Assembly: GCF_964204645.1 (NCBI RefSeq)
Contig: NC_134028.1
Location: forward strand, 18,979,653-19,043,652
Direction of reading: 5' to 3'
DNA from: Tubulanus polymorphus
Lineage: Eukaryota; Animalia; Nemertea
Length of the DNA stretch: 64,000 nucleotides
Shown: piece after piece, positions 11,901-45,410 of the stretch
Layout of the letters: the number at the start of each line of letters is the position of its first letter
Numbering within the stretch: position 1 is the first letter of the stretch
Position numbers and translations under genes: made by a program
Notes under the pieces: generated by a model
The model's input: the letters and a program-made list of their open reading frames with translations, nothing else
Told to the model about the DNA's origin: nothing
Databases searched by the model: none

Positions 11901-12027
11901 CACAAGATTAAGTTGATTCAAGAATAAAAAAGTCAAAGAGTTGCGTTTAAACCAAGAAGATTGTTGCGTTAAGTTTATTTGCAAGATTCAAGATTGGCAG
12001 TTACAAAAGTTTAGACGAAGACTAAAG

Positions 12028-15045: not shown

Positions 15046-17429
15046 ATATTAAGCCACAACCTGTTACTCGACGTGGGATGTTGTCTGTAGTCAGTGCTAT
15101 TTACGATCCGCTCGGACTTGCTTCGCCATTACTGCTACCAGCGAAGGTCATATCTCAACACCTGTGTAAGTCCGGACTAGGTTGGGATGACAAAGTACCC
15201 GCGAATTATGAACGTGAGTGGAGTAATTGGCTGCAAGACCTACCCCTGCTGGAAGAGTTCTCAGTCCCAAGATGTATTAGACCTGCTAATTTTGGTCGCG
15301 CGACTTCAACACAGCTTCATCATTTTGCAGACGCATCTGAGAAAGGATTCGGTGCAGTTTCATACGTACGTCTTATTAATGAAAATGGGCACATACATTC
15401 TGCATTCTTAGCGTCAAGGTCGAGATTGGCCCCACTCAAGGTGATGTCAATACCACGTCTCGAGCTGTCTGCAGCAGTATTAGCAGTGAAACTAGATCGT
15501 ATGCTTCGCGAAGAACTCGACCTGGATATCGACAACTCCACATTCTGGTCCGACAGCCAGGCTGTCTTGAAGTACATCAGCAATACGAGTAGTCGTTTCA
15601 AGGTATTCGTCGCAAACAGGTTATCAGTTATCCAAGAAGGTTCAAATCCAGAGCAATGGAGATACATACCGGGGGTTTTAAACCCAGCCGATGAAGTCTC
15701 TCGAGGACTCACTGCTCAGCAATTCCTGCAAAATGACAGATGGGTTGCTGGGCCAGAGTTTCTACGAAAACAAGAAAGCGAATGGCCTCGACAAGAATTC
15801 GGAAATCACGATGTATCAATAGAAGATACAGAAGTTAAAAAGACATTTGTTTCAAAGGACTTGGAAATCAACTCATCGTCAACCAGCGTGCTGCTAAACA
15901 TAGCAGATAGATCTTCAACGTGGCATAAGGCCAAAATTGTAGCGGCGTTGGTTATGCGTTTTATAGCAAGACTGAAACAATCTGTCTCTAAACGGAAGGG
16001 ACTAAATACTGCAGCTCAAGGTACCGCATACAAACATATAACTGTACCCGAATTGAGAGCTGCCGAAAGCGCCATTGTTGAAGCTGTACAGCGTAAAGTT
16101 TACGGTAAAGAAATGGAAAGACTGGAGCAGAACAGAACGACAGATAGACGTAAATATCGCAAATTCGTTAAGAAGACTAGTGTACTTCGGCGTCTAAACC
16201 CCATAGTGGTAAATGGACAGCTGAGAGTTGGTGGACGTCTGTCTTACTCAACAGGGAACGAGGACCAGAAGCATCCTTTAATACATTCACCAAATGAACA
16301 TGTAACTAAGCTTATTATCCGCCATTACCATCGTTATAGGGCTGGACATTCCGGTCGAAACCACGTTCTGTCACTTGTACGCGAGAAGTATTGGATAGTC
16401 CACGGTATGTCAGCAGTATATCGTATTCTGAGGGACTGCATTGACTGCAAAAAGAGACAAGGTCTTCCAGGTCAACAAATGATGGCGGACTTACCACCTG
16501 AAAGGCTAGTCGCTGATAAACCGCCTTTTTCGAACGTCGGAATTGATTATTTTGGTCCGTATTTGGTAAAGATCGGCAGAAGTCAAGTAAAGCGATATGG
16601 CTGTATTTTTACCTGTATGTCATCGCGAGCAGTCCACTTGGAAATCGCTAATTCTATGGACACCTCTGCGTTCATAAATGCTCTGAGACGTTTCATAGCC
16701 AGGAGGGGCAACCCGGAGTGTATAAGAAGTGATAATGGAACCAACTTTACTGGAGCTCAACGAGAATTACGTGATTCAATAGCTGGGTGGAACCAGGAGA
16801 AAATCGAAGGATTCATGCTCCAGCGCGAAATTACGTGGGAATTTAATCCGCCAAGTGGATCGCACTTCGGTGGCGTATGGGAGCGTTGCATGAGAACAGT
16901 TCGAAAGGTGCTTAATGCGTTGTTAAGCCAACAAGTGTTAAACGACGAGAATTTGTCCACTCTTATGTGCGAAGTGGAATCTGTAATTAACTCGCGTCCA
17001 CTTACCGCGATTTCTGGAGATGTCAGTGACTTACAGGCCCTAACGCCTAATCATATCTTGCTCTTGCGCGCCGGAGGCACCATGCCGCCAGGTGTCTTTA
17101 AACCTACTGATATGTATATAAAGAGAAAGTGGCGTCAAGTACAGTATCTTGCCAATACGTTTTGGCGACGTGCATGGGTTAAAGAGTATTTGCCTGTGTT
17201 ACAGGAGCGCCAGCGATGGCAAAAGCCGAGCGTCAATTTTAGCGTTGGTGACATTGTTTTAGTGATGGACCACACACTCCCTAGGTGTTGTTGGCCGCTA
17301 GGCCGAGTTATTAGCGTACATCCGGGAAAGGACAATAAAGTCAGGGTTGTTACCTTGAAGACAAGGTCGCAAAATTCTCTTTTACGCCCAGTTGATAAAC
17401 TTGTGCACCTCGAGTGTGTACATAAGTAA
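14933..17429 (+). CDS. BEL/Pao RNase H (peptidase A17 region) and integrase, continuation after the frameshift
   Basis: Motifs YDPLG, LHHFADASE, SIPRLEL, NPAD, HHCC zinc finger, GIDYFGP, SDNGTNF, GGVWER and a DUF5641-like C-terminus. Confidence 0.92.
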
Positions 17430-19706
17430 CTTTGTAACAATTTGTATTAATTTGTAATTTTAAAGAGCGTAAACAGAATTTCTTAAGATAAGCCTATAGT
17501 GGTTTAATGTTAAGCTGGTTATGTGATGTTTTTTGATAATTTTGTAGTTTGTAGTACTAAGGTTTTTTGGTTTTATAAGCATAAGGCTAGTTTTTTAAAT
17601 TTTTTGTTTTAAGCGCCCTACGTGCCCTTAAGAAGGTGGGTGATGTAGTGTTCAATTGTGTAATTTGTAACAGTTAATTTTGCTCTAGCTAGTGGCGCCC
17701 TCATGCGGTATTTCTTTGTACTAAAAGTTAAGATGGTATCCATGTGATTGCAATTTTAAGACAGTTTTAGTTTTTACGTTTGTTTCTGCCAAATTTATGT
17801 TAGATCAATCCCAAAACGTCTGTAAGTACATAGCAGAATATCTTCTAAATGTGTATTAATATTCAGTAATCAGTAACTATAGTTTAATGTGCTTTAAATC
17901 AGTCGCGAAAGTTTATTAAATTTAGTTATTGAGTACGTGACTTCCGGTAAAGATGGAAGACATTTTTTTTTTTACTTTCGATATTAATTTCCTATGTTGC
18001 AATATTCTTATAGTGTAATATTGTTTATTTTATTAGAAACCAACAACAACATATGTAAAGAACAACGACAAGATATGTCAAGAACAACACAAGATTAAGT
18101 TGATTCAAGAATAAAAAAGTCAAAGAGTTGCGTTTAAACCAAGAAGATTGTTGCGTTAAGTTTATTTGCAAGATTCAAGATTGGCAGTTACAATATCCGT
18201 GGCGAGCTTTTCCAGGGATTTAAAAAGTTGAGCTGTACACAAGGAATGTTGTGTTGTCCAATATCCGTGATTACCTCTGGCGTGGAGAGATACAATCTAA
18301 AACCAACCATAGAGTCAAATATTTTACCACAATTTTTTATGATCAATAAAAAGATTGAGTAATAGACATTCAAACAGTATTATCTAAATTCCACTCCATT
18401 TTAAACTCATTCATCTCTACACAAACTCCAACTTGTTGAACAGTCCACATTAAAATTAGGGACCACTATTCTTGCTCATCTACACTGGCTACCAATCTAA
18501 CAAAGGATTAAATTTGAGTGTTTGATGTTATAACAATACCAGACTGAATTATTCGGTTTCTACTTTTAAATTGAACATTTATATCACATATTGGGCATCA
18601 ATTTTACTAGTATATATGGAATAACCTATCCATATATCATGTTCAATTTTATATAATCTGACTTTTGAGATGTCATTCAATCAATGCATTCACATGCGGT
18701 CGTCGCTTTCAATAGCCACCACGGACTGGCTCCTTATTGGCGGACGATCATGACGCCAATCGTTCTTTTAAAGATCTTTCTTTCTCGAAAAAAGATTTTC
18801 TTAAAAACTTTGATTATGGCGAATCTTTTATGTGTCCGATAGTTAAACCTTCGGGTATTATACTAGAACACAAATTTTTAAAGATATTCATAACATACTG
18901 AAGGATATCACAGTTTATACCCGAAGATATGCAGTTGGATAGATCTTTTTGTTTCGACTCGCATGCGACAGTAAAAACATTACTTGATATAATAAGTGAA
19001 CTTCATCATTGATATTTTCACTAATCTACTTGAATTCCAAAAAAGAACTGACAATGAAAAAGGGTTACAGCTGTGACTGATATCACTCCAAATTTCAATT
19101 CCTATGAACACTTTTCATATAAAGAAAACTATTAACGAAACAGATTTTAGAGGCAAAGAATCCGCGTTACCATCGAATTTTCAAAACTTGAAGGAATGGT
19201 TAATGCCTCGGTGACCACTTGTCTAGTACGCGGTTTTCTGAAATGAAAGTGGCGTCTAAAGAACAACTATTGTATCATATGATTTCAAATATTAGGAACC
19301 CAATGCGTTTAATGATTTAATTAATTGGTATCGCGCAGATTGGTTGAAAGACGGGTGTTAGTCACCTTGTGATTTAATTGTTTTTCATGCATCGAAATTT
19401 TTAATTAATCTTATTATAACTTATTTGTAGGCGCTTCCCGCAAACATTTTCTATTCGTTGAGTTTTCAAACGCAGTACTGTTCAGATGATTCGAGTCAAG
19501 TAGTAAAAAAGTTTATGTATTAGCATTACTATGCAGTGAAAATAACGCACTGCGGCAAGTGAGGTGCTGTGATCCAGATGTGTAACCCATTTATGGGTAA
19601 TAAATTTCCATCATGTCAACGCCATTCAAAAACAGTAGCAAAACTTTCTGCTGGTTTCTAGAAATAGCAATACGACGACAAGCTTTTTCGAATTCGACCA
19701 CGATAT

Positions 19707-26400: not shown

Positions 26401-27192
26401 GGAAATATCTCAATTGGTCAGTTTCTGACCATCATGGTGTCACCATGTGGTCTATAGCTCAAATGAAACACGTGGGACCGACGAAAGGGCCCAAAAGCGT
26501 AAGTCATTTCCTGAGTGATGTGATCCAAAAATGCCCTAACTGGAAAAGGCAGTCTTTCAATTGGACGAAACCAAATCGGACAGAACAATTAAAATTTGGG
26601 AAGGCCACAGGCAGTGGTCTTTCTACGAAGCCCACGCGGTAGGCCTATACTTTGAGCGTATCATTATGAAATCTTTTTTTAAACCACCATGTAGGCCTAC
26701 CACATTAAGTAATAAGCATCGTTGTAAGCACTTGAAACACCCATTAACCACTTGAAACTGTCAGATCAAACATCATACCGCATCCCCGCAAAGAGGGGTA
26801 GTTCAGCAAACCGGAGCTTTCATTTGCCTATCTAGACTACCCCGCCAGTACGGGTAGCCGAGCAAACCGGAAAACTCATAATGGTCTCTCAATTGGATGA
26901 AACCAAATCGGACAGGACAATTAAAATTTGGGAAGGTCACAGGTAGTGGTCTTTCTACGAAGCCCACGCGGTGAGCGTATCATTATGAAATCTTTTTCTA
27001 AACCACCATGTACCACGAAGAAATAAGCATCGTTGTAAGCACTTGAAACAGCCATTAACCACTTGAAACTGCCAGATCAAACATCATACCGCATCCCCGC
27101 AAAGAGGGGTGGTTCAGCAAACCGGAGTTTTCATTGGCCTCTCTAGACTACCCCGCCAGTACGGGTAGCCGAGCAAACCGGAAAACTCATAA
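20418..27192. mobile_element. Copy B of the non-coding TIR element, with both termini; right terminal ~310 bp tandemly duplicated
   Basis: Left end TTATGAGAATGCCGGTTTGCT. Right ends AGCAAACCGGAAAACTCATAA at 26881 and 27192. ACTGACC arrays at 20870-21400 are inverted relative to GGTCAGT arrays at 25820-26430. Confidence 0.7.
23650..24056. mobile_element. PIF/Harbinger-like MITE
   Basis: TIR AGGCGCTTTTACGAAA(T/C)TGAATCT with ATA on both flanks (3-bp TSD). Internal AATCGA repeats. Confidence 0.75.
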
Positions 27193-28223
27193 CAGGAATT
27201 CTCTATGATCAATCTGTCAACTGATTTCAACCGAAATTCGTCACTTCCCATTTGCAGAATATGGCATCCTTTGGGGATCTCTTTTTCACTCTAAGTAGGC
27301 CTACTAGCCAACTCTGGTTATTGTCGGATGCCACATTGCATCGAAATGTAAAATGGTGGAGTGTAGAACCGCTCTTTAACTACTTAGTAGGTAAGTAAAG
27401 AGGCCGGCAACTAGTCTATTTGCTGTGAGACGACATGTATATTCTCGGAGCTACCCACTTTTCAACCCAGAAGTGAATATAACAAATTCAATACAATATA
27501 ATTTAGTTCCATTCGAATGTCGTTTTTTGGCGTAGCCAAGGTAAATAGCGAAACAGAATCTATAAGCTCGTAGGTAAGGTTTGCATTTACCAATTCCACG
27601 CTAAGGCTTATAAAAAAGGAAGTGATTATTTAGCCGGATCCGGTCACCGACTTCTGAACGCTAATTTGCCAGATCCATTAGTAACAATAAAATCATATTC
27701 ATGCCTAATCATTTTATTGGTGTAACTCTGTCGAACAAACAATGATCAACTAACGACGGAAAAGTTAAACGTCGCAAATGCGTCTTCCAATTCTTAACAA
27801 ACGTAACTAAGCTAAGCTAAGCGAGACTCGACGATTAAATGACAACGACGTACAGAATCAATCACAATGACGATTAATTACAAGAAAAAACACGTCACGA
27901 CACCTAAGTAACATAATAACACAATAAGTAATACAGAAAGCAACAAACCGGTTAAGCATACCGAAACATTTGGAACTTTTATACCATAGAGCTACAAAGC
28001 TTCTATCAGCATTGAAATCGAATGGCGCATTAAAACTGTGTTTCAAATTTCCGGTACAAAAATCTAGCTAATAACTCACAGAAACCAACATATCCAATTT
28101 GGGAGGGCTCCAAATGGAGTAAAACAGATATTTGAGCTTAACATACCGGCCCCATAATTGGGTCACCAATTATTCCCTTCAAAGGTCAAAATATCCTAAC
28201 TCATATCATTAATAAAATCTTAG

Positions 28224-30202
28224 TGTCGTAGCTCGTTCCCGTATGCACCGGAGTTAACCTCTGATCGAATGCAGGGAGAACCGACCTACGAGTTCCTCTC
28301 AGCTCTTCACCTCACCCACGTTCCTATTCAGCAGGATGCAGCTGTGCCGTTCCTCCTTGTTCCGTACTGTAGAAGCCGGTGGGAAGAATCCTCGAACGAC
28401 CCCGAACCTGCAAGACACTGTAAACATAAGACTTATATTCATGCAGTATTACCAAAAGAAAAATATAAACAAAACTCAAATAATTGAAGCGTCCTTCGCT
28501 AATGAATTAATAACGAATATCGGCAACACAGTTTAGTTCCACACAATCAACTAATAACGTGACCGCCACAAAAACCGAACTAAACTACACCACCCCACGC
28601 CGGACATTCCCGATCCGCCACAAAAACGAATTCTCCACGAAACGAAATCTATGAACGAAAACTTTCTGCGAACGCACGCAGAATCATATACGCCACAATC
28701 ACCAATACGAGCACGAATACCACGCACCCGAATTTAGTATAAAACCATATTATTTGATTAACGCTGCTGGGAATCTGCAGTGTCGTCTTGTGTTGCATGA
28801 TTTTATACTAAATTCGGGTGCGTGGTATTCGTGCTCGTATTGGTGATTGTGGCGTATATGATTCTGCGTGCGTTCGCAGAAAGTTTTCGTTCATAGATTT
28901 CGTTTCGTGGAGGAGAATTCGTTTTTGTGGCGGATCGGGAATGTCCGGCGTGGGGTGGTGTAGTTTAGTTCGGTTTTTGTGGCGGTCACGTTATTAGTTG
29001 ATTGTGTGGAACTAAACTGTGTTGCCGATATTCGTTATTAATTCATTAGCGAAGGACGCTTCAATTATTTGAGTTTTGTTTATATTTTTCTTTTGGTAAT
29101 ACTGCATGAATATAAGTCTTATGTTTACAGTGTCTTGTAGGTAATTGTGTTTAATTATTTACTTTTCTTGTCATTTTTGTTTGTTTTTGTTTTTGTTTTT
29201 TTTGTTTTTTTGTGTTTTTTTTTTTGCTTTATTTGATTGTTTTTTTTTTGCTTGCTTTTGATTAATTGTAATTCGATTTGCTAGGATTGTGGTACACTTA
29301 ACACGCTTGTTTGTTACAATAATATTGTGGTTGGTGGAGCTAGGGGTAGAGAGTTTTTTTTTTTTTAGCTTATCGCATAAGAGTAAGTAGTTACGGTACA
29401 AACAATCAACACTGTTCTTGTCGATAACTGTATCAACGTGGTTTTTTTCAAATCATAGTGTTCACAGGTTACGGGTGTGAGTATATTAACGGGAAATTTA
29501 GACGTCCATATTAGGTTATTTCGTACGGTATATACTGGGTAAGAAATTGACTTGAAACATGTCGACGCTTGAGCGTGTACTTTTTGTAGAAATAGATCCT
29601 GTATCGGTGACTGAGCGTGAGTTGTCGACTGCTTTAATGGCTTATGGAGTGGTGGAATTAGTTGTCGAGGATCCTCGCGGCAAAGGTTGGTTTGTGATGT
29701 TCACCAGAGTGTCTACTGTAATGTCTTTGTTGTCGGTGGGTGAGTTGCCAGTAGGTAAGGCTATCGCTACACTCACCTGTATTGATGCCGCGGAGGCTGA
29801 GCAAGTGGGGGATATTCTATCCGAGGGGAGGGAGAGGAAGGCGCTAGAAGAGGCTCAACGCCTTCTTAGCTCCGTTAGGAGGAATTCTGCTCAGCGTAGC
29901 TTCCTACAGTCGAAATTAGACTCGGTCACCCCGGTTAAAGTGGTCCCAGAGCGGGCTGTTGGGGTTCAGCCGATATCTTTTTCCTCACCACGGTTGGACA
30001 ATTTCTCTGGAAGTGAGCGGAAAGGCGAAACCACGTATAAACTCTGGAGGTCGCAGGTGGAAGGTTTATTAACTGATCCCGCGATTTCGGATCACGCCCT
30101 TTTGGCTCTAATAAGACGATCGGTCCGGGAATTGCCGGCCGAGATTGTATTGAGCATGGGCAGTAGCGTTACTCCGGAGGATGTGTTGCGGAAATTCGAT
30201 TC
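28224..30202 (+). mobile_element. Duplicated left end of the inverted-terminus Gypsy (inverted U5-like segment, hairpin 28406-29142, truncated gag)
   Basis: Near-identical to 33156-35134. Confidence 0.9.
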
Positions 30203-30221
30203 GGCCTACCACATTAAGTAA
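29559..30221 (+). pseudogene. Truncated PNMA-like gag (220 aa) ending in junction-derived AYHIK
   Basis: Matches the first 215 aa of ORF 34491-35861 (one L/P difference), then reads into flank. Confidence 0.85.
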
Positions 30222-32660
30222 TAAGCATCGTTGTAAGCACTTGAAACACCCATTAACCACTTGAAACTGTCAGATCAAACATCATACCGCATCCCCGCAA
30301 AGAGGGGTAGTTCAGCAAACCGGAGCTTTCATTTGCCTATCTAGACTACCCCGCCAGTACGGGTAGCCGAGCAAACCGGAAAACTCATAATGGTCTCTCA
30401 ATTGGATGAAACCAAATCGGACAGGACAATTAAAATTTGGGAAGGTCACAGGTAGTGGTCTTTCTACGAAGCCCACGCGGTGAGCGTATCATTATGAAAT
30501 CTTTTTCTAAACCACCATGTACCACGAAGAAATAAGCATCGTTGTAAGCACTTGAAACAGCCATTAACCACTTGAAACTGCCAGATCAAACATCATACCG
30601 CATCCCCGCAAAGAGGGGTGGTTCAGCAAACCGGAGTTTTCATTGGCCTCTCTAGACTACCCCGCCAGTACGGGTAGCCGAGCAAACCGGAAAACTCATA
30701 ACAGGAATTCTCTATGATCAATCTGTCAACTGATTTCAACCGAAATTCGTCACTTCCCATTTGCAGAATATGGCATCCTTTGGGGATCTCTTTTTCACTC
30801 TAAGTAGGCCTACTAGCCAACTCTGGTTATTGTCGGATGCCACATTGCATCGAAATGTAAAATGGTGGAGTGTAGAACCGCTCTTTAACTACTTAGTAGG
30901 TAAGTAAAGAGGCCGGCAACTAGTCTATTTGCTGTGAGACGACATGTATATTCTCGGAGCTACCCACTTTTCAACCCAGAAGTGAATATAACAAATTCAA
31001 TACAATATAATTTAGTTCCATTCGAATGTCGTTTTTTGGCGTAGCCAAGGTAAATAGCGAAACAGAATCTATAAGCTCGTAGGTAAGGTTTGCATTTACC
31101 AATTCCACGCTAAGGCTTATAAAAAAGGAAGTGATTATTTAGCCGGATCCGGTCACCGACTTCTGAACGCTAATTTGCCAGATCCATTAGTAACAATAAA
31201 ATCATATTCATGCCTAATCATTTTATTGGTGTAACTCTGTCGAACAAACAATGATCAACTAAGGCGCTAGAAGAGGCTCAACGCCTTCTTAGCTCCGTTA
31301 GGAGGAATTCTGCTCAGCGTAGCTTCCTACAGTCGAAATTAGACTCGGTCACCCCGGTTAAAGTGGTCCCAGAGCGGGCTGTTGGGGTTCAGCCGATATC
31401 TTTTTCCTCACCACGGTTGGACAATTTCTCTGGAAGTGAGCGGAAAGGCGAAACCACGTATAAACTCTGGAGGTCGCAGGTGGAAGGTTTATTAACTGAT
31501 CCCGCGATTTCGGATCACGCCCTTTTGGCTCTAATAAGACGATCGGTCCGGGAATTGCCGGCCGAGATTGTATTGAGCATGGGCAGTAGCGTTACTCCGG
31601 AGGATGTGTTGCGGAAATTCGATTCGGCCTACCACATTAAGTAATAAGCATCGTTGTAAGCACTTGAAACACCCATTAACCACTTGAAACTGTCAGATCA
31701 AACATCATACCGCATCCCCGCAAAGAGGGGTAGTTCAGCAAACCGGAGCTTTCATTTGCCTATCTAGACTACCCCGCCAGTACGGGTAGCCGAGCAAACC
31801 GGAAAACTCATAATGGTCTCTCAATTGGATGAAACCAAATCGGACAGGACAATTAAAATTTGGGAAGGTCACAGGTAGTGGTCTTTCTACGAAGCCCACG
31901 CGGTGAGCGTATCATTATGAAATCTTTTTCTAAACCACCATGTACCACGAAGAAATAAGCATCGTTGTAAGCACTTGAAACAGCCATTAACCACTTGAAA
32001 CTGCCAGATCAAACATCATACCGCATCCCCGCAAAGAGGGGTGGTTCAGCAAACCGGAGTTTTCATTGGCCTCTCTAGACTACCCCGCCAGTACGGGTAG
32101 CCGAGCAAACCGGAAAACTCATAACAGGAATTCTCTATGATCAATCTGTCAACTGATTTCAACCGAAATTCGTCACTTCCCATTTGCAGAATATGGCATC
32201 CTTTGGGGATCTCTTTTTCACTCTAAGTAGGCCTACTAGCCAACTCTGGTTATTGTCGGATGCCACATTGCATCGAAATGTAAAATGGTGGAGTGTAGAA
32301 CCGCTCTTTAACTACTTAGTAGGTAAGTAAAGAGGCCGGCAACTAGTCTATTTGCTGTGAGACGACATGTATATTCTCGGAGCTACCCACTTTTCAACCC
32401 AGAAGTGAATATAACAAATTCAATACAATATAATTTAGTTCCATTCGAATGTCGTTTTTTGGCGTAGCCAAGGTAAATAGCGAAACAGAATCTATAAGCT
32501 CGTAGGTAAGGTTTGCATTTACCAATTCCACGCTAAGGCTTATAAAAAAGGAAGTGATTATTTAGCCGGATCCGGTCACCGACTTCTGAACGCTAATTTG
32601 CCAGATCCATTAGTAACAATAAAATCATATTCATGCCTAATCATTTTATTGGTGTAACTC

Positions 32661-33075
32661 TGTCGAACAAACAATGATCAACTAACGACGGAAAAGTTAA
32701 ACGTCGCAAATGCGTCTTCCAATTCTTAACAAACGTAACTAAGCTAAGCTAAGCGAGACTCGACGATTAAATGACAACGACGTACAGAATCAATCACAAT
32801 GACGATTAATTACAAGAAAAAACACGTCACGACACCTAAGTAACATAATAACACAATAAGTAATACAGAAAGCAACAAACCGGTTAAGCATACCGAAACA
32901 TTTGGAACTTTTATACCATAGAGCTACAAAGCTTCTATCAGCATTGAAATCGAATGGCGCATTAAAACTGTGTTTCAAATTTCCGGTACAAAAATCTAGC
33001 TAATAACTCACAGAAACCAACATATCCAATTTGGGAGGGCTCCAAATGGAGTAAAACAGATATTTGAGCTTAACA
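32661..33075 (-). repeat. Probable 3' LTR of the minus-strand BEL element (duplicate at 27729-28143)
   Basis: On the minus strand, PPT-like GGGGCCGGTA (33085-33076) is followed by TGTTAAG. Distal CA boundary uncertain (32653 or 32661). Confidence 0.6.
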
Positions 33076-33337
33076 TACCGGCCCCATAATTGGGTCACCA
33101 ATTATTCCCTTCAAAGGTCAAAATATCCTAACTCATATCATTAATAAAATCTTAGTGTCGTAGCTCGTTCCCGTATGCACCGGAGTTAACCTCTGATCGA
33201 ATGCAGGGAGAACCGACCTACGAGTTCCTCTCAGCTCTTCACCTCACCCACGTTCCTATTCAGCAGGATGCAGCTGTGCCGTTCCTCCTTGTCCCGTACT
33301 GTAGAAGCCGGTGGGAAGAATCCTCGAACGACCCCGA

Positions 33338-34074
33338 ACCTGCAAGACACTGTAAACATAAGACTTATGTTCATGCAGTATTACCAAAAGAAAAATATAA
33401 ACAAAACTCAAATAATTGAAGCGTCCTTCGCTAATGAATTAATAACGAATATCGGCAACACAGTTTAGTTCCACACAATCAACTAATAACGTGACCGCCA
33501 CAAAAACCGAACTAAACTACACCACCCCACGCCGGACATTCCCGATCCGCCACAAAAACGAATTCTCCACGAAACGAAATCTATGAACGAAAACTTTCTG
33601 CGAACGCACGCAGAATCATATACGCCACAATCACCAATACGAGCACGAATACCACGCACCCGAATTTAGTATAAAACCATATTATTTGATTAACGCTGCT
33701 GGGAATCTGCAGTGTCGTCTTGTGTTGCATGATTTTATACTAAATTCGGGTGTGTGGTATTCGTGCTCGTATTGGTGATTGTGGCGTATATGATTCTGCG
33801 TGCGTTCGCAGAAAGTTTTCGTTCATAGATTTCGTTTCGTGGAGGAGAATTCGTTTTTGTGGCGGATCGGGAATGTCCGGCGTGGGGTGGTGTAGTTTAG
33901 TTCGGTTTTTGTGGCGGTCACGTTATTAGTTGATTGTGTGGAACTAAACTGTGTTGCCGATATTCGTTATTAATTCATTAGCGAAGGACGCTTCAATTAT
34001 TTGAGTTTTGTTTATATTTTTCTTTTGGTAATACTGCATGAATATAAGTCTTATGTTTACAGTGTCTTGTAGGT
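33338..34074. repeat. Long inverted repeat (hairpin), ~340-bp arms, ~48-nt loop
   Basis: 33338-33680 is the reverse complement of 33729-34074 apart from a few substitutions and one 3-bp indel. Confidence 0.95.
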
Positions 34075-34490
34075 AATTGTGTTTAATTATTTACTTTTCT
34101 TGTCATTTTTGTTTGTTTTTGTTTTTGTTTTTTTTGTTTTTTTGTGTTTTTTTTTTTGCTTTATTTGATTGTTTTTTTTTTGCTTGCTTTTGATTAATTG
34201 TAATTCGATTTGCTAGGATTGTGGTACACTTAACACGCTTGTTTGTTACAATAATATTGTGGTTGGTGGAGCTAGGGGTAGAGTGTTTTTTTTTTTTTAG
34301 CTTATCGCATAAGAGTAAGTAGTTACGGTACAAACAATCAACACTGTTCTTGTCGATAACTGTATCAACGTGGTTTTTTTCAAATCATAGTGTTCACAGG
34401 TTACGGGTGTGAGTATATTAACGGGAAATTTAGACGTCCATATTAGGTTATTTCGTACGGTATATACTGGGTAAGAAATTGACTTGAAAC

Positions 34491-35861
34491 ATGTCGACGC
34501 TTGAGCGTGTACTTTTTGTAGAAATAGATCCTGTATCGGTGACTGAGCGTGAGTTGTCGACTGCTTTAATGGCTTATGGAGTGGTGGAATTAGTTGTCGA
34601 GGATCCTCGCGGCAAAGGTTGGTTTGTGATGTTCACCAGAGTGTCTACTGTAATGTCTTTGTTGTCGGTGGGTGAGTTGCCAGTAGGTAAGGCTATCGCT
34701 ACACTCACCTGTATTGATGCCGCGGAGGCTGAGCAAGTGGGGGATATTCTATCCGAGGGGAGGGAGAGGAAGGCGCTAGAAGAGGCTCAACGCCTTCTTA
34801 GCTCCGTTAGGAGGAATTCTGCTCAGCGTAGCTTCCTACAGTCGAAATTAGACTCGGTCACCCCGGTTAAAGTGGTCCCAGAGCGGGCTGTTGGGGTTCA
34901 GCCGATATCTTTTTCCTCACCACGGTTGGACAATTTCTCTGGAAGTGAGCGGAAAGGCGAAACCACGTATAAACTCTGGAGGTCGCAGGTGGAAGGTTTA
35001 TTAACTGATCCCGCGATTTCGGATCACGCCCTTTTGGCTCCAATAAGACGATCGGTCCGGGAATTGCCGGCCGAGATTGTATTGAGCATGGGCAGTAGCG
35101 TTACTCCGGAGGATGTGTTGCGGAAATTCGATTCCGTGTTTGGGTCAGTAACGACTCCGACTCAGGCATTGTCAGCATTTTTTACTGCGGAACAAAGACC
35201 CGAGGAATCCGTTGCCCTTTGGGCCTGTCGTCTCGAGACCCTGAAGAGTCGTGTTCTGGGAGTAAGTGAGGAGATGTTAAGATCGCAATTCTGTAACGGT
35301 CTGAAGGACTCTCAGATTAAGCTGGCATTGCGACCGACTCTTTCCACGGCTGCTAGTTTCCCTGACATGGTCCTGGAAGCTAGAGGTGTGGAGGACATGA
35401 TAGGAAAGACTTCGACAACACCGGTACACAGAAGGTCGGGAGTTGTGCAGCAGCACGCAGTTCAACCTCAAAAGATAAAACTTAAGAGTTCAGTCTCGTT
35501 AGAGGATGTTGCTGCTAAATTAGATGATGTAGTTAGAAAATTGAATGGGTTCGAACTGGAAATTCATCGCTTAAGTAAACGAGTTGACCATATAGATCGA
35601 GTGGTGGAACAGTTCGGGTTGGGGGTAGAAGGAAGGAGTCAGACCGATACGAAGGTTTCGGTTGACCCTGATCCACCGATCTCGACAAAGCGCTGTTTCA
35701 AGTGTGATTTGCCTGGTCATTTTGTCAGGGAGTGTCCTCAGTGGAGGAACGACATGGGTTTGCGTCGACCTCCGCCCACTTACACCTGTTATAAATGTAA
35801 TGTCGTTGGTGATCACTACTTTCAGGATTGTGGGAAAGGACAGCCACCGTTAAACTCCTAA
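34491..35861 (+). CDS. Gypsy Gag, PNMA-like (RRM-like N-terminus, capsid, two CCHC zinc knuckles), 456 aa
   Basis: Motifs PRLDNFSG...YKLWRSQV, IRRSV, KFDSVFG, QRPEESV, CFKCDLPGHFVREC and CYKCNVVGDHYFQDC. Ends GTTAAACTCCTAA with pol starting in the -1 frame. Confidence 0.9.
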   Translation: MSTLERVLFVEIDPVSVTERELSTALMAYGVVELVVEDPRGKGWFVMFTRVSTVMSLLSVGELPVGKAIATLTCIDAAEAEQVGDILSEGRERKALEEAQRLLSSVRRNSAQRSFLQSKLDSVTPVKVVPERAVGVQPISFSSPRLDNFSGSERKGETTYKLWRSQVEGLLTDPAISDHALLAPIRRSVRELPAEIVLSMGSSVTPEDVLRKFDSVFGSVTTPTQALSAFFTAEQRPEESVALWACRLETLKSRVLGVSEEMLRSQFCNGLKDSQIKLALRPTLSTAASFPDMVLEARGVEDMIGKTSTTPVHRRSGVVQQHAVQPQKIKLKSSVSLEDVAAKLDDVVRKLNGFELEIHRLSKRVDHIDRVVEQFGLGVEGRSQTDTKVSVDPDPPISTKRCFKCDLPGHFVRECPQWRNDMGLRRPPPTYTCYKCNVVGDHYFQDCGKGQPPLNS

Positions 35862-38800
35862 GGGATCAGCGTTCTGGGCGCGTTGGGCCCCGCCATGGTG
35901 AAAAGCCCAAGTCGGAAATTAAATCGCCGTCGGTTGCGTCTCGCGAAGAGTTGATAGAAGGGTTATTGGGACCTCCAGTGAGACAGAGGTTCTCGTAAAT
36001 AGTGTCGGTTGCAAGGCCCTGATTGACACTGGCGCCATGGTGTCAACGGTGTCGGTGTCATTTGCACAACAGATAGGTGCGGCAGTGTACCCTTTGGAGG
36101 GGATCTTGAATGTTTCGACAGCTGCGGGTCATAAGTTGCCCTATCTCGGTTGTACTGTCGTGACACTCGGTATCGGGAACAAAGAAATCGAGGTATTGTC
36201 GCTGGTTGTGCCGGAAACTGAATATAACCGGGTAGTACCGGTTGTCGTAGGCACGAATGTCTTGAAACGGGTATGCGGACTCGTAGATGAGTTACCCCTG
36301 CCTTGGAAGGCATGCGTCCAGTCAATGGCGCAAGTGGAGGAAGAGCTGGTAAAAACGACAAAGCCGATACAAGTGCCTCCCATGAGCGAAATTGCAATTC
36401 ATGGAATCATCCGAGGGGAGTTGAGTAGAGCTAGTACGGTGATGACCTGTCAGTCTACGGTCGTTTTACCCGGAACGCTTACAGTGGTTCCATCGGTGTC
36501 GTCTTTGAACGGCTACGGAGTGAATCGGGTGACGGTAGTTTTAAGGAATGTGGGTTCATGTCCGGTGAGTATTCCGGCTAAGACGCCCGTTTCCAATGTT
36601 TTCTTAGTGTCGCCGGTTCGCTTGGCAGGGCTCGGGACTGATGCTTGGTCAGCAAGGGACGGTCCCGAGCCAGCTGTCAACGGTTGCGGTAATTTGTTTA
36701 GTATGACTGCTGAGACAAACTGTGTAAATAATTCGAGTGATTTAGAGAATCTGAGTAAAAAAGATTTTCTTGCGTCTTTTAATTTTAAGGACACGTCCTT
36801 GAGCGAGGCTGAGTTTTCAGAGTTGGGAGATTTTCTATACAGTTGGAATTTGTTTATTTTCCAAGTCTGCCGATGACATCGGGCGCACATCGATGGTGCG
36901 ACACCGTATTTTATTGAAAGATAAGATTCCGATCAAAGAACGGTACCGACGGGTACCCCCTGCTATGTTCGAAGAGGTACGCCAGCATTTGAAGATGATG
37001 CTGGATGCGGGTATAACCCGGCACTCGTCCAGCCCTTACGCGTCACCTGTTGTGTTGGTAAGGAAGAAAAATGGTGAGCTGAGGTTCTGTGTCGATTATA
37101 GGGCGTTGAATTCGAAAACTGTTGCCGATAGTTTTAGCTTGCCCAGAATCGATGATCTCTTGGACTCAATGTCTGGGGCGAAACTTTTTTCGAGCCTTGA
37201 TTTGAAGGCAGGTTATTGGCAGGTCGAGATGGAAGAGTCCGACAAAGCAAAAACTGCCTTTTCTGCTGGTCCAGGCTTAGGGTTTTTTGAGTTCAACGTT
37301 ATGCCCTTTGGACTTACAGGGGCGCCGTCCACCTTTCAGCGCCTGATGGAGAGATGTTTGGGCGACTTATGTATGCGCGAATGCTTATGCTATCTGGACG
37401 ATGTCCTTGTACATTCGGTCGATTTTAGGCAGCATTTGGTCCGTTTACAACACGTTTTTGAGCGGTTGCACCAAGCAGGGCTCAAGCTTAATCCGGCTAA
37501 ATGTGTATTCTGTTGTTCGTCTCTCATATATCTAGGGCATAGGTTGTCGTCGGAGGGCATCGAAGCAGATCCCGGTAAAATCCAGGTTATCTCTGATTGG
37601 CCTGCTCCCAAGACCATTGGGGAGGTTCGTAAATTTCTTGGGTTTACGGGGTTTTATCGCAAATTCATTTGCTCTTACGCGTCTATAGCCAAGCCCTTGA
37701 CGGATTTACTGGTGGGTGTTGAATCGGGACGAGGAAAAGCTTCAGAGAAAAACTCAGTACAGTGGGGAGATGAACAGGAGAATAGCTTCCGGGAGCTGAA
37801 ATCTTGTCTCACGACGCCTCCTGTGCTTTGCTTCTCAGATTTTACGAAGCCATTTGAGTTACACGTAGACGCCTCCGGAACTGGTCTCGGCGCTGTTCTC
37901 TACCAGGAGCAAGACGGATGTAAACGAGTCGTGGCATATGCTTCTAGGTCTGTATCAAAGACCGAGCGGAATTATCCGACTCATAAATTAGAGTTCCTGG
38001 CCCTCAAGTGGGCTGTAGTTGACAAATTCAAAGATTATCTCTATGGGAACCGTTGTCGGGTACTTACGGACAATAATCCGCTGACATATGTCCTTTCGAC
38101 GGCGCGTCTGGATGCCACCGGCCACCGATGGCTTCAGGCTCTGTCTGTTTTTGACCTGGAAATTTCTTATCGTCGAGGTTAATTGAATGTCGACGCCGAT
38201 CTCTTGTCCCGATGTGGGGTTAGGTCGGAACACTTGGAGGTCAACAGGGATTGTGACATATCAGGCGAGGTTTTTGCAGCTGTGTGCCAGTCTGTCGTTA
38301 GCGACGTTAAGTTCGTGGAGGCTGATTTCGGTATCGGGGAGGTCGACTTGTTAAAATCCCAGGAGAGAGACCCCATTATTGGTCCCATTCGGGAAGCTTT
38401 AGTCAGCGGGAAGAAAGTAAATCTTACTTCCCGTGAGAGTAGGCGGTATCGAAAGTACTTAGCGGGTTTTTCTGTGAGAAATGGACTACTTTGTCGTCGG
38501 ATGAGAGGTAACACGGGAGAAAGGTGGCAGGTGGTCCTGCCTAATTCCGAGCGAGCCTCAGTGCTAAAGTCATTGCATGATGAGATGGCTCATCCTGGAC
38601 GCGATCGATCAGTTGCGCTTATTAGCGATCGTTTCTTTTGGCCAGGAATGAGAGCGGAGGTGGAGGGTTATGTACGTTCGTGCCGACGCTGTGTACTTTT
38701 TAAATCAACGGTTGAACGGGCTCCTCTTTCTTCGATAGTTACCACATATCCGTTTCAGCTGTTATGTATCGATTATTTGAAAATCGAGCCATCAGGAGGA

Positions 38801-40099
38801 GTTGAAGATGTGTTGGTAATAACGGACCACTTTACGAAGTATTGTTGGGCTTTTCCAACCCGGAATCAACTCGCTTCTACCGTTGCAAAGGTTTTGCACG
38901 AGCAGGTGATTACCAAGTTTGGTATCCCGTTAGTGTTGCATTCCGATCAGGGCCAGAACTTCGAAAGCAAAGTGATCAGGGAACTCTGCAAGCGGGCCGG
39001 AGTGACTAAATCTCGGACCACACCTTACCATGCCATGGGCAATGGGGCGTGTGAGAGATTCAATTTCACTCTCATTGGCATGTTAGGTACGTTGGAGGAG
39101 GGTAAAAAAGGTGGATGGAAGGATTATGTTAGTTCGTTGGTCTTTGCGTACAATTGCACTCCTCATCGGGTGACCGGCTTTGAGCCATATTATCTGATGT
39201 TCGGTCGTCAGCCACGGTTACCGGTGGATTTGCGTTATGGGTTGAGGGCTGATGAGGAGGGGGAAGTTGGAGAGTTCGCTAAGACGGTTGATGAGAGACT
39301 AGAGTATGCTTGGGGAGTTGCGAAGGAGAGAATGGAAACAGTCGGGGGTTATGACAAGGTCAGATATGACAAAGCTGCTCGGGGAGGTGTTCTGGAAGTT
39401 GGGGATTTAGTACTGGTTAAGTGTACTGGGTTTAAAACCAGACATAAAATCGCTGACAAATGGGAGGCGGATCCGTACATTGTGGAATCGAAGCCGGCAG
39501 GTGAAGTACCGGTGTACGAGGTCAGAAACGTAGTTTCTAAAAAGAGGCGTGTTGTTCACCGCAACCTCTTGAGGGTCTTGGCTGTAGAGCTTCGTCCTCC
39601 CCGCGAGGGGGAGAATCCTAGGGTAAAACACTCTAGGGAAATGATTCCTCAGCCGCCGATTGTGGATAGTAAGGTGGGGGAATCCAGTGATGAAGAAGGA
39701 GATGAGTTTTTCATTCTTCATAGGATGCCCGACGTCGGACTCGGGGGTAACCGGAGTGACAGTGGTGAGGAACTCAGTGGCGTAGATAACATTCCGCCCC
39801 CCATAGAGTTTCAGACTCCTGTACACGACGAGGATAGTACGACCTTGCAGGAGGAAGTGGCCCCATCACCAGAGGTTCCTGAAGTCAGGTCCCCTGAGAA
39901 GGAGGTATATCTTCGCAGATCACAGCGGGTGCGAAATAAACCTGGCTGGATGGAGTCGGGCCAGTATGTCCAGTCCTTGACTCAGCCTGAATGGCGAGAG
40001 GGGGCTGATTATTTAGTGTCGTTGGCCGGAAATGCGAGTGTAGCCAGTAACGCATGCTTGCTGAATGCTGTGGTCCAGTTTCTGGTCAGCACGGTATAG
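35849..40099 (+). pseudogene. Gypsy pol (protease, RT, RNase H, integrase) with about three lesions
   Basis: Motifs LIDTGA, RFCVDYR, YLDD, VDASG, TDNNPL, HSDQG and GACERFN. Frameshifts near 35975 and 36850-36890; in-frame TAA at 38180-38182. Confidence 0.9.
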
Positions 40100-40314
40100 T
40101 ATTTTATTGTGAATTTTACTGATTTGTGATACCGTGCAATGGTCTGCAGAGATTGTCTAGTTTGTTTATTTATGTTATATACCTAGCCGGGTTGTGCGGA
40201 TGTTTTATAGCAGGAGGTAGTTATTTTAGTTGTGACAGGTTTCTTTATTCCTAGGGGGTTAAGAGAATTTCCAGGTACATTCCGGGACGGAATGTTCTTC
40301 AGGCGGGGGAAGTA

Positions 40315-41133
40315 TGTCGTAGTGTCGATTTTGCCGGAGTCGATATGTAACTCCGAATTCCGTGCCGCGGTCATTTTACTGGTCTGGCAAGTGGCGCCGC
40401 CAAATTGAGTTGGCGTCCTTGGAGACCCGCAGCGTCAGTCGTCTTCGTATTACTATGAAGTGAAGTACGTTCTTGAATAAACTGTGGCATTTGACAAAGT
40501 TTTCGTGTTGTTTACTCTGCAGGTAAATTAGTTTGATCTTCTCTCTATTTTAAAGTATACTACGATGTGCTCAAGCTTCGAGTTGTTGATCGTCAGGGTG
40601 TTTGGGGTGAATTGATTGTGTGTTTAGGGGAAATTATTCATGGTAGATTTTCCCGCGCTGAGCGTTATCAAGGGGGCGCTGTTGATTATTTGTGGTTTAT
40701 ATGTGTATGTGGTCTGTGTCCTTAAGTATTTAGTAACGCAGTTCTTTTGCTTGATAAATTAACGAATCTTGGGTGAGTAAAATGTGATATTAAATGATGC
40801 AGTTTTGATGTAATGTGAGATATATTTGTTAGATTGATTGTAAATAATTGTAAGGGGAGCGTGAGTCGTCTTCATATTACTATGAAGTGAAGTACGTTCT
40901 TGAATAAACTGTGGCATTTGACAAAGTTTACGTGTTGTTTACTCTGCAGGTTCGGGGTCGTTCGAGGATTCTTCCCTCCGGCTTCTACAGTTCGGGACAA
41001 GGAGGAACGACACAGCTGCATCCTGCTGAATAGGAACGTGGGTGAGGTGAAGAGCTGAGAGGAACTCGTAGGTCGGTTCTCCCTGCATTCGATCAGAAGT
41101 TAACTCCGGTGCAAACGGGATTGAGCTACGACA
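40315..41133 (+). repeat. 3' LTR of the Gypsy element (819 bp) with an internal ~86-bp direct repeat
   Basis: TGTCGTAG...CTACGACA directly after the PPT. Repeats at 40437-40522 and 40864-40949 each contain AATAAA. Confidence 0.85.
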
Positions 41134-41137
41134 TTAG

Positions 41138-44030
41138 CAAACCTATGCACAAAGACATCTAACAAAAAAATATCAGCACATCAATACTTGGCGATATGCC
41201 GACCGAGGAACAAGGAACTTATACTACAATGTATTCCCCTAACTATAAATCATACAAACGTATTAACCATATAAACCCTCAGAATTAATCCTACAAGAAC
41301 AATAATCTTAACCTTACACACAGAACAACATAATAATCAAACTATACCAAACTATTGTACATGTACGCATCAAACGTAGAAAGAAACAACTCAGTATACA
41401 AATGTCAAGCAGAGACGCCACGATATATGGAAACATAACAACGATTCACGTATCCATTACCAGCAACGTGATCAATTTATCGACCGGACGGATAAACTCG
41501 GTGTTCGCGGTTTTCCCCAAGACGGATCGAACGAAACCTTTCTTGTCTGGACAGGTCTCGACAACACGGCCCATGGCCCAACTATCGCAGCATGAGTTGT
41601 CGACCAGCAATACGACGTCACCGATCTGAAGATTTTGCTTAACGGATTGCCACTTGTGACGCAACTGTTAAGTGGACAAATACTCAAACACCCACCGAAA
41701 ATTGATCCGCTAAGAACTGAACGCTACGCCATCGCTTACGGGCATAATTATCGGTCTTCGCAAAATTACCAGGGGAACCGCATTTTCCTTTTTGCGCGAG
41801 AAGTAAATGGTTCGGAGTGAGCACTTCCATATCATGAATATCACTTGAACCTTTGGTGATAGGACGGTTGTTCAAAATGTTTCCACTTCGCAAAATAGAG
41901 TCGCCAGTAAATCATCATCTAATACTACTGGATTGTCTCTCAGCAAGCCATACAGGACCTGACGCACAGAACGGATAAGCCTCTCCCAGGCACCACTTAA
42001 GTGGGACTCACTGGGCGGATTGAATTCCCACTGGATGCTGCGCTGCTGAAGAGACTTAGATATTTTGTTGACGTCCAAGTTTTCCAATTCCCGACGCATC
42101 TCGGACTCAGCTCCGACTAAATTGGTTCCGTTGTCGGAACGCATAAATTTCACTGGCCCCTTTCGGGCTACGAATCTCCAGAACGAATTTATGCACGAAT
42201 CGGTGTCCAACGAGAATGCGAGCTCCAAGTGGACAGCATGCGACGCAAAACAAGTGAAAATCACACCATACCTTTTTAGAACCAATCGCGACCGTTTAAT
42301 TTCGAAAGGACCAAAGAAGTCCACTCTGGTATGGCTGAACGGTGGTTCATTTACAGCTAACCTCTCGGGAGGCAGATCAGCCATCTTCTGCTCATTCACT
42401 CGTCCGCGATAACGACGGAACAACGTACACTTAATAATGACCGACTTGATCAATGTCACAACTCCGAGTATCCAGTAGGTCTTCCGCACATGAGCTAAAA
42501 TTGAATCGCGACCGAGGTGTCCTACAGCTCTATACGCATCACGAACGATCAATCTGGACACATCCGAATCTTTCGGCAGAACTGACGGATGACGCTGTTC
42601 GTAGGGAATTGTCGCTCGTCCCAAGCGCCCACCAACTCGTATCATATCCTGATCCAAAAACGCATCGATTTGATACAATCTACTTCCCCGACTGACACGA
42701 CCAGAGGGAAGGACGGTTAGCTCGTCGGGGAAGTGCTGCTGCTGGACGATTCGAACGATCAAATCGGTTCCATTGCGAAAGTGTCTCCAGCTGAGGCAAC
42801 GATACTTATCAGGGTCGACAGGATTGCCCCGAACTTTATCACGCAGATAATGAACAACGGATATCAGCCAGCCGACTGCCCGACGCAGTTTAAACCAATC
42901 TCCGTAGTAGTCTATTAACTGACAGACCGGGTGAGGCACCTCACCCTCACGCGCATGCATGGTTCGGAACACGGGTTGGCTCTTTATTTCCGGATCATCC
43001 GACGCATCAAACGATTCATTAGGCCACTCGTCAGGAGCTCGATAAAGAAACTCCGGCCCCTGTAACCACCTTGCTAGCTTGGCGTGAGCCCAGTTGAGAC
43101 TCCGCCCACGAGACGCTTCGTCAGCCGGATTGTCCTCTGATCTTACGTGTCTCCATTTCTGTTCGTCGGGCCCTGCACGGATGGCGCTAACCTTATTCGC
43201 CACGAACGTGCGGAAACGAGTAGATTCGTTTTTCACATATCCTGTCTGTCCAATAGTAGATGTCAACTTGCGCAGGACTAACTTCACTGGAAAAACGAAA
43301 GGCGATATCAGACCCAGAGGATCATACACACTACTGACAATCGATAACAAGCCCCGTCGAGAAGGGGCACGATCCGGAATCGACGGTCGAAAAATGTGTC
43401 AGCACGTACGTCCCATATCATGCCTAAGACACTCTCGATTGACGACGGTTCGGGATCACCATTCAAACACATAGATTACTCCCGACTTTCAGGCAAAACG
43501 GATTCCATCACGTCACGACTATTAGAAATCCAACCGCGCAAATTGAAACTGCCCTTTTTGCAGAGGCTGGTGGCACCATCCAGGAAAACCTTTGCCTCTG
43601 GCATAGAGTTAACCGATTTCAAGTAATCATCCATATAAAAATGCCTGAAAAATGATTCTGAAATCTCTGGTGCGAAATGTTCTTTGTTATCTATGGCAGC
43701 TTGTCGCAACGCTGTGTTTGCTTAACTTGGAGACAAATAAATGACGAGTCATACGATATGTACACGGAGCGCGGCTGGTATCGCTGTTTGGCCACCAGAG
43801 GAAGCGCAAGCAATCTCCATCCCTTTCCGGAACTGACACTATGAGGAACATCTTTTCGACATCGGCAGAGATAGCAATTTTATTTTCCCGGAATCGCTCG
43901 AGAACACCAACTAAGGTACTCGTCAAATACGGGCCCTGCAACGGAACAGTATTTAAGGACGCGCCACAAAACGTAGTGGAACCATCAAGACAACGCGTAT
44001 TTTCCTGCGCGTAGTCATCCAGACGCGTTA
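41138..44030 (-). pseudogene. Degenerate BEL/Pao pol (RT, RNase H, integrase) and 3' UTR
   Basis: Fragments ADVEKMF, LRFLWWP, FYMDD, YDPLG, NPAD, SDNGTN, AWERLIRSV and LTPNHLL, with many frameshifts. Confidence 0.9.
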
Positions 44031-45410
44031 CAAAATCGACGAACGTTTCCTGATGATTCTTCGATTCTTTACGAAACTTAACACGATAAGCTGCCGGTGG
44101 ATAAGATGGCCTCTTTCACGGAGCGATAACACTTCTGATCGGTATCAGATAATGCGAAATATGCCTGCTGCACAGGTCCTGTTAGATAGGGTTCTAACAC
44201 ACGTGTATACTCACTGCCCGCAAGGTTATAACGCTGAGCCAAATTCTCAAAGGTCTTAAAATAGAAATGAATATCATCACTGTTGTTGAGCTTCTGCAGC
44301 TCGATTAACCTCCGCAACTGAGTTACGTTGAATTTCGATTCGATTAATTGATGAACAGTTTTTAACAAAGCCTCGTTATCCTCGCGACGCGTCTCAGAAA
44401 AATGGGCCAGCAATCCCTTGAACATAGTTTCAACACTATTGCCATCAGTCTTCAACGAGTTACCCAGTCCGGGAGATGGCTCGGTAATAACTTTTAAGTC
44501 CGCGAGCGCACTGACTTTATCCTCTTTTGACGGGAGTAAGGCCACACCTAAATGATTGTGTTCGCACAAACACTTGAGATACTCCGCAGTATTACGTCGC
44601 AAAACGGACTTGGATTCTTCACTGGACATCATACGCGGATGTTCTGAAGATACTACTAAGTTTAACGAGACGGACGACAGGATCATACGCGGATGACTCC
44701 TCTGTTGGTCCGACAATACTACTAAACGACGAGACGGACGACAGGATCATACGCGGTTGACTCCTCAGGTGGTCCGACACTACTACTAAACGACGAGACG
44801 GACGACTGGATCATACGCGGACGACTCCGTGGGTGGTCCGACACTACTACTAAACGACGAGACGGACGACTGGATCATACGCGGATGACTCCGTGGGTGG
44901 TCAGACGATACTACTAAACGACGAGACGGACGACTGGATCATACGCGGATGACTCCTCAGGTGGTCCGACGCTACTACTAAACGACGAGACTGACGACTG
45001 GATCATGCGCGGATGACTCCGTGGGTGGTCCGACACTACTACTAAACGACGAGACTGACGACTGGATCATGCGCGGATGACTCCTCAGGTGGCCCGACAA
45101 TACTACTTCAAACTGGTGGCGCGCTCCGTCTGGTCACGTGTGCCAAACCACACCTCGAAAACGCACGAAAAAGTTAGATAAACCGTTTACCTGTAAGGTT
45201 TGCCCCACGCTTTGGGCGCCATTATGTAGAGGGTCCTTCCAACTACATAAAATCAACAACGCGAGATCTTGATGAAAACTTACAGTCAACTTTATTTAAC
45301 GATTCTACCAGACGTTCTCATAAAGCGCGAGCGCCATTTACAACACAAAACTCCACTGACACTGCTGGTGGCGCCACCTTACCATATACCATTAGACTGG
45401 TTCCCCTACA
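44030..45410 (-). mobile_element. 5' fragment of another Gypsy element: 186-bp LTR, tRNA-Lys-like PBS, 64-bp tandem array, partial gag
   Basis: LTR at 45225-45410 (TGTAG...CTACA). PBS TGGCGCCCAAAGCGTGGGG at 45221-45203. Gag motif DDIHFYFKTFENLA...PYLTGPVQQAY...YRSVKEAIL. Confidence 0.8.
44630..45108. repeat. 64-bp minisatellite, ~7 copies
   Basis: ACTAAACGACGAGAC recurs at 44721, 44785, 44849 and 44913, and continues. Confidence 0.9.

Follow-up and report, generated by a model that had tools for sequence, protein, structure and literature searches.

A mirrored Ty3/Gypsy copy with two U5 ends in a nemertean genome, a candidate accident of reverse transcription

Layout of the copy

The window analyzed here is the whole stretch of 64,000 nucleotides from the nemertean Tubulanus polymorphus (contig NC_134028.1, positions 18,979,653 to 19,043,652, forward strand), and positions are given within it. 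At 33156-41133 the window contains a rearranged copy of a Ty3/Gypsy long terminal repeat (LTR) retrotransposon with TTAG on both flanks (Table 1). With about even confidence, we read the family as ordinary and tRNA-primed and this copy as a single rearranged member, made by two microhomology template switches in one reverse transcription and then likely inserted by integrase through two U5-type ends. This would be a one-time copying accident and not a new replication mode, because sister copies have the normal layout.

The element belongs to Ty3/Gypsy by Pfam matches to gag and then protease, reverse transcriptase (RT), RNase H, and integrase. The window copy also has TG...CA ends, a short target-site duplication (TSD), and a polypurine tract (PPT) followed by a 3′ LTR, which is composed, from left to right, of U3, D, S, D′, and U5. 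When a direct 5′ LTR and a primer-binding site (PBS)-like site were looked for at the left end, neither was present, making this copy a rearranged derivative. Lacking a PBS and a 5′ promoter, it would not replicate in this form.

The left end carries an inverted U5 followed by an inverted leader segment, here called E, which forms a hairpin with its direct counterpart. The left terminal segment is identical to the right one at 182 of 189 positions, and the hairpin arms at 335 of 341 (three substitutions and one 3-nt indel).

The best protein matches are 55-63% identical and come from molluscs and cnidarians. A FastTree tree of 83 rows, from which loci below 50% identity (except six outgroups) and matches shorter than 330 aa were left out, gave the element no well-supported placement. 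No relative was found among viral contigs.

Table 1. Features of the rearranged copy and of the LTR modules in related loci (window positions unless a locus is named)
Feature	Position	Strand	Remark
Tandem duplicate, later, of the element's left 2 kb	28224..30202	+	same hairpin, same C at joint
TSD, left copy, TTAG	33152..33155	.	letters; empty site in 5 X5 reads
Inverted U5, 184 bp, supplying left TG end	33156..33339	-	7 differences from right U5
E-U5 joint	33338..33344	-	7-nt overlap, one wobble, C from LTR side
Inverted leader segment E, left hairpin arm, 341 bp	33340..33680	-	
Apex switch	33674..33680	+	native leader starts 33674; 6/7 letters are inverse of E's start; loose ends before 33674 in X1, X2, X5
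Hairpin loop, 48 nt, native 5′ leader	33681..33728	+	
Leader segment E, right hairpin arm	33729..34072	+	donor-like site (34073) at its end
T-rich remainder of 5′ leader	34073..34490	+	more donor-/acceptor-like sites (34300, 34315); sequence only
gag: PNMA domain, two CCHC knuckles	34491..35861	+	Pfam
pol: protease, RT, RNase H, integrase	35923..40099	+	Pfam; three reading-frame pieces here
PPT	40301..40312	+	
U3 of 3′ LTR, begins TGTCGTAG	40315..40430	+	36 X5 reads join start to mixed flanks
Repeat D, R-like exon with AATAAA	40431..40524	+	donor CAG/GTAAAT (40523) at end
Spacer S, body of predicted LTR intron	40525..40857	+	
Repeat D′, 91/94 identical to D	40858..40949	+	acceptor 40949 at end
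U5, right end CTACGACA	40950..41133	+	
TSD, right copy, TTAG	41134..41137	.	
LTR module: duplicated R-like repeat, donor after copy 1, acceptor ending copy 2	40431-40951		sequence only
Same module	L010 7510-7816		
Same module	L017 6510-6804		
Same module	L022 3476-3809		
Same module	L036 296-648		
Same module	L039 7214-7793		
Same module	L045 6874-7122		
Same module	L066 1813-2152		
Same module	L071 8591-8860		
Same module	L089 296-714		
Same module	L115 7170-7486		
Partial module	L013 956-1183		

Family layout in DNA reads and contigs

The element was compared with three contig sets (X1-X3; their kind is unrecorded, and they behave like DNA) and with a raw DNA run (X5), about 12% of which was read. 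On 33685-41300, 2415 X5 reads were aligned, and on 32800-33728, 304 reads.

The first comparison lists three joints, none of which is E-U5. Beyond the rows listed for the two comparisons are others with weaker support (104 and 10 loose ends; 212 and 15 pieces). In 36 X5 reads the LTR start (40315) is joined to mixed flanks, and 64 cross the U5 end (41135), where the shared continuation starts with a TGG-led primer-binding-site motif, as it does in one X3 contig. Agreement over this shared PBS-like start is 0.67; therefore, PBS reads are mixed with flank reads. By these loose ends at 40315 and 41135 and by the X3 contig, the family has a direct 5′ LTR and a PBS. X5 depth is ~27 on E, 40 inside the element, ~36 on S, and 90-110 on U5. 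Incidentally, 15 X5 reads join D directly to U5, so a short LTR form (joined at 40524) exists in DNA beside the long form.

On 32800-33728, 76 X5 reads pass from U5 into D, and 13 pass from E into the T-rich leader. Upstream of 33674, a different leader is found in 25 X5 reads and in X1 and X2 contigs. Inverted E was not found in the other family copies examined, and five X5 reads, from another individual, show an empty TTAG site. As far as three samples show, the mirrored end belongs to one polymorphic insertion, because the reads give ordinary ends, another leader, and an empty site.

The earlier note had suggested that splicing supplies the second att end without a 5′ LTR or tRNA primer. 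The family shows 5′ LTR ends, a PBS, another leader, and no listed E-U5 joint, and as a family-level mechanism the claim is refuted for the samples examined; a retrotransposon doing without a 5′ LTR and tRNA in the proposed way does not hold. On paper, two RNAs starting in the loop could regenerate the structure, so that spliced or antisense RNA would serve as a family-wide strategy. Yet none of 13 X5 reads over the end of E enter U5 (were half expected to, P = 1e-4), and E does not have twice the depth (~27 versus 40 internal). In addition, reads of 5′ LTR ends and PBS abound, native leader makes up the loop, and none of the close-clade loci has the layout, making this the least probable reading. 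A bidirectional promoter in the loop (TATAAAA occurs on both arms) was dropped as a family mechanism because the left arm is absent from other copies.

Could faulty assembly of a normal copy have produced the hairpin or the joint? Position 33340 is bridged by no listed read or contig, and an 872-bp X1 contig crosses the leader without a branch. However, the TSD agrees with the empty site, and an 80-bp X1 contig (33126-33205) spans the junction of flank and inverted U5, with 30 of its letters in the flank. X2/X3 contain the duplication junction at 34770, the arms and the U5s are non-identical, and rare paths get dropped from contigs. An artefact is very improbable.

Letters at the joint

The donor-like site reads TTGTAG/GTAATT at 34072/34073, the acceptor-like site reads TACTCTGCAG/GTTCGG at 40949/40950, and the minus strand at 33338-33344 reads TTGCAG/GTTCGG. 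These letters are present as the earlier note gave them. It had gone on to equate the left end with the product of splicing between the two sites, which is true of all letters but one, as the note itself observed: an exact splice would put T at −3, and the joint has the C of the LTR side there. The same C stands in the tandem duplicate, so neither window copy is identical to the exon-exon product. The E-U5 joint is seen twice, only in the window, and in none of the rows listed for the four runs.

Between 40858-41133 and 33681-40314 there are 364 matches of at least 7 nt, when wobble-type pairing is allowed as at the joint. In only 4 of these 364 equal microhomologies do a donor-like and an acceptor-like site fall into register, so that their coincidence at the joint, about 1 in 100, is beyond ordinary chance. 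The donor-like site at 34073 scores 7/9 on the donor consensus, within the top 25 of 635 GT sites.

Retention of AG/GT at both sites in relatives, a check named in the earlier note, came out divided. The acceptor is conserved in 10 families. At the donor, GT itself is kept, but 34072, which is G in the window and in X2, is T in the X1 contig and in 14 of 14 X5 reads. X2 also carries the duplication junction of the window, and its G could therefore derive from the window copy itself. The G may also be a hairpin-templated correction from the left arm and not a pre-existing allele.

Two proposed template switches

The copy can be accounted for as follows. The normal minus strand copied from one RNA would halt near 33674, within the 5′ leader. 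A second strong-stop DNA, likewise tRNA-primed, would copy U5 and five further bases, use the 7-nt match (with a G·U wobble, leaving the C) to jump to E's end, and copy E. The two minus strands would then pair by their 3′ ends at 33674-33680 and extend on each other, the second becoming the plus strand. Finally, integrase would act on the two U5 att ends.

The hairpin apex supports such switching. The native leader begins at 33674, and 6 of 7 apex letters match. The apex therefore has the signature of the E-U5 joint, a 7-nt overlap with one wobble, in the absence of any splice site.

Judging from their variants, the left part and the right part seem to derive from two templates. The 3-nt indel that separates the arms segregates in the family (long in 12 of 19 X5 reads, short in X1), and the U5 copies differ at a segregating site (55 of 100 X5 reads). 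Five U5 sites have private variants, with only one of the two sides differing from every X5 read, and none of the five is common to both sides. Divergence is 7/184 between the U5s versus 2/338 between the arms (Fisher p = 0.011). The arms of the tandem duplicate have no substitution besides the joint C, apex excepted, and the chance of T>C at one named site is ~0.002, at the rate of 11 differences in 4101 bp of X1 pieces.

Comparable events, in which first-strand transfer is premature or misdirected, are common in HIV-1. In PMC12657518, faulty first-strand transfer lies behind 61 of 395 deleted proviruses, 7 of them with the junction in U5, and PMC9278108 proposes two-RNA routes for proviruses with asymmetric LTRs.

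Several points weigh against this account. The joint coincides with a donor-like site and a conserved acceptor, as would follow directly from a spliced template. The G at 34072, required for the 7-nt match, is not seen in X5 or X1 and is possibly copy-specific or a later hairpin-templated correction. The E-U5 joint is not seen outside the window. Gene conversion could maintain arm identity, weakening the two-template argument. Other mirrored copies may also exist beyond the three contig sets and the one run sampled.

A one-off accident with a spliced RNA (donor 34073, LTR acceptor 40949) as second template is a real but doubtful possibility, because 40949 is a conserved acceptor. It keeps the mechanism that the earlier note gave for the joint and drops the family-wide part. 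Strong-stop DNA would invade this RNA through the 184-nt U5 homology and transfer its 3′ end at a point 3-5 nt beyond the exon junction, bringing the C. The conservation of the acceptor in 10 families and the high donor score favor this route, and it accounts for the 1-in-100 coincidence at the joint. Spliced viral RNAs are, moreover, occasionally packaged, according to PMC5086612. On the other side, an exact splice predicts T and C is found, and hand-over would be confined to ~3 of 190 positions unless biased toward the homology end. Further, the acceptor lies downstream of both AATAAA signals, requiring read-through, and donor −1 is T in most of the family copies examined. The weights given to the microhomology jump and to the spliced template are judgements.

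Thus, what survives of the earlier proposal that the left end is an antisense cDNA of a spliced RNA joined to the genomic strand is that it looks like a second minus-strand cDNA, with 40949 very likely an acceptor; the spliced template is less likely than the microhomology jump. The note's own alternative, a template switch at microhomology, fits slightly better, as the joint keeps the LTR-side C and the apex is a similar switch.

The rearrangement could also have followed integration. A normal copy would have been inserted first, and its 5′ LTR and PBS later replaced through three template switches of DNA replication, which would lie at the terminal inverted repeat of the LTR (8 bp), at the 7-nt match of E with U5, and at the apex. 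All three joints have 7-8 nt of microhomology, the arms look younger than the U5 pair, and tandem duplications lie at the same locus. But three switches are needed, one of them flush with the att site. The U5s would have been identical at the start, and their 5-6 private changes in 368 bp exceed what the internal rate allows (1.0 expected, P ~0.003); left and right also carry different segregating alleles. In addition, a copy from another clade (L152, below) reaches the same outcome. We regard this history as unlikely. Recombination after insertion of two elements in opposite orientation at one site was rejected as an origin, because it would require a double hit at one base.

A second mirrored copy

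One other copy with two U5 ends was found among 158 loci that encode related RTs, the majority of which stop short of one or both element ends. L152 (5805-9880) is a Gypsy copy of another host and clade, with integrase before RT. Its left end consists of an inverted 380-bp U5-side part of the LTR and a 62-bp fold-back, followed by a jump into pol, and CCTAG flanks it on both sides (5-bp TSD). No splice signals are present at the L152 joints. A normal sibling, L122 (4279-9943), is in the same record set and has two direct LTRs and a PBS. The independent occurrence of L152 without splice sites at its joints counts for reading the window copy as an accident.

Gmr1-type elements have integrase before RT, an order found in L152 and not in the window element. 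A fold-back inside pol at a contig end (L074) was set aside as a likely assembly artefact. Incidentally, many prokaryote metagenome-assembled genome records (L081-L158) contain eukaryotic host contigs with Gypsy elements.

A predicted intron in the LTR

The 158 loci were scanned for isolated two-copy repeats. Outside the window 12 matches were found, and in 10 of them, in 10 loci, copy 1 ends with CAG/GTA and copy 2 with a pyrimidine tract and CAG. The repeats are 64-104 bp long with a spacing of 179-482. In a looser scan, 11 of 22 had this arrangement, the window included, at a chance of ~0.002 each, though relatives are not independent. In 9 of 10 loci the module is followed by the end of an LTR and a PBS-like site, chosen by eye from lists of patterns. 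RTs of the module-bearing families are 53-80% identical and spread over several tree branches. A PPT-pattern LTR census missed most known LTRs, so 10/88 is a lower bound and not a frequency.

Two loci depart from this pattern. L013 was considered as a second element of the window type, but is actually PPT-U3-D-S-D′ (17 nt) with a separate inverted LTR end. L082 has two complete 598-bp LTRs without a duplicated repeat, and the LTR at 269-866 has intron-like GT-AG segments.

From this comparison of sequences, 40949 is very likely a real acceptor, and D-S-D′ is predicted to be a self-regenerating LTR intron of animal Gypsy elements. Transcription would start at D, and S-D′ of the 5′ LTR would be spliced out. 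The 3′ end would be cleaved within D′, and strong-stop DNA (D-U5) would land on D′, restoring U3-D-S-D′-U5.

Splice signals are likewise rebuilt by reverse transcription in split-intron retroviral vectors, where LTR duplication reassembles them (Ismail et al. 2000, via PMC3182074). The vectors described there are engineered and single-round, with the packaging signal removed, whereas natural D-S-D′ would rebuild its intron every cycle. The exact placement of donor and acceptor in at least 11 animal Gypsy families gives comparative support to an intron predicted to outlast reverse transcription.

Comparison with known elements

In the parts of PMC12657518 and PMC9278108 seen, defective or asymmetric HIV-1 proviruses resemble the window copy in an early or misplaced strong-stop transfer, two co-packaged RNAs, and integration of the product. 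Those are deletions and asymmetric LTRs in direct orientation, whereas the window copy has an inverted left U5 and a fold-back.

Ginger1 transposons, as described in PMC2836005, have TGT ends, terminal inverted repeats (TIRs) of 40-270 bp, a 4-bp TSD, and a Gypsy integrase, and their TIRs are suggested there to stem from two LTRs in opposite orientation. The window copy likewise has TGT ends, a TIR (184 bp), a 4-bp TSD, and a Gypsy integrase inside. Unlike Ginger1, a multi-copy TIR family with transposase only, the window copy still has gag and RT, its target is TTAG and not CCGG/CCGT, and it is a single copy. Pfam gave no OTU/Ulp1 domain in the window element, and there was no sign in it of cut-and-paste.

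DIRS-1 has inverted terminal repeats and internal complementary segments, a layout that the window copy resembles, and DIRS elements use a tyrosine recombinase. Unlike them, the window element has a DDE integrase, a PPT, an LTR, and a TSD, and its family is conventional. It has rve and H2C2 integrase domains, with no recombinase match in the four element open reading frames scanned. The window copy is not DIRS.

A literature search found no retrotransposon copy with U5/U5 ends and no natural LTR intron with duplicated R, most subscription papers, Repbase reports, and supplements being outside its coverage. PMC6374386 and PMC12789967 contributed nothing specific.

Together with L152, which comes from a different host and clade, the TSD-flanked U5/U5 integrant of the window means that accidents of reverse transcription can make TIRs around a Gypsy integrase in one step. 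Such integrants bear on how Ginger1 transposons arose. Mirrored copies would be missed or mislabeled by LTR-finding tools.

A broader scheme, to which we give a low though not negligible probability, would link these observations. The clade's LTR intron would be rebuilt each cycle, and its acceptor would also yield a co-packaged RNA devoid of gag-pol. Minus strands priming each other would then make inverted-U5 elements around integrase, recurring across hosts and offering a one-step route to Ginger1-type transposons.

Neighborhood of the insertion

Nested tandem duplications, made up of flank and of the element's left part, occupy 26694-32685 of the window, with 26694-30202 corresponding to 31626-35134 and 29838-31262 to 31261-32685. 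The tandem duplicate differs from the main copy at 5 of 3509 positions, and the duplication junction at 31262 also occurs in runs X2/X3.

To the right of the insertion lies a degraded BEL/Pao element (41872-43398 and 43687-44746, both on the minus strand). Further large inverted or direct repeats at 8156-8845, 711-1951, and 11457-17943 comprise MITE-like palindromes and a probable second LTR element.

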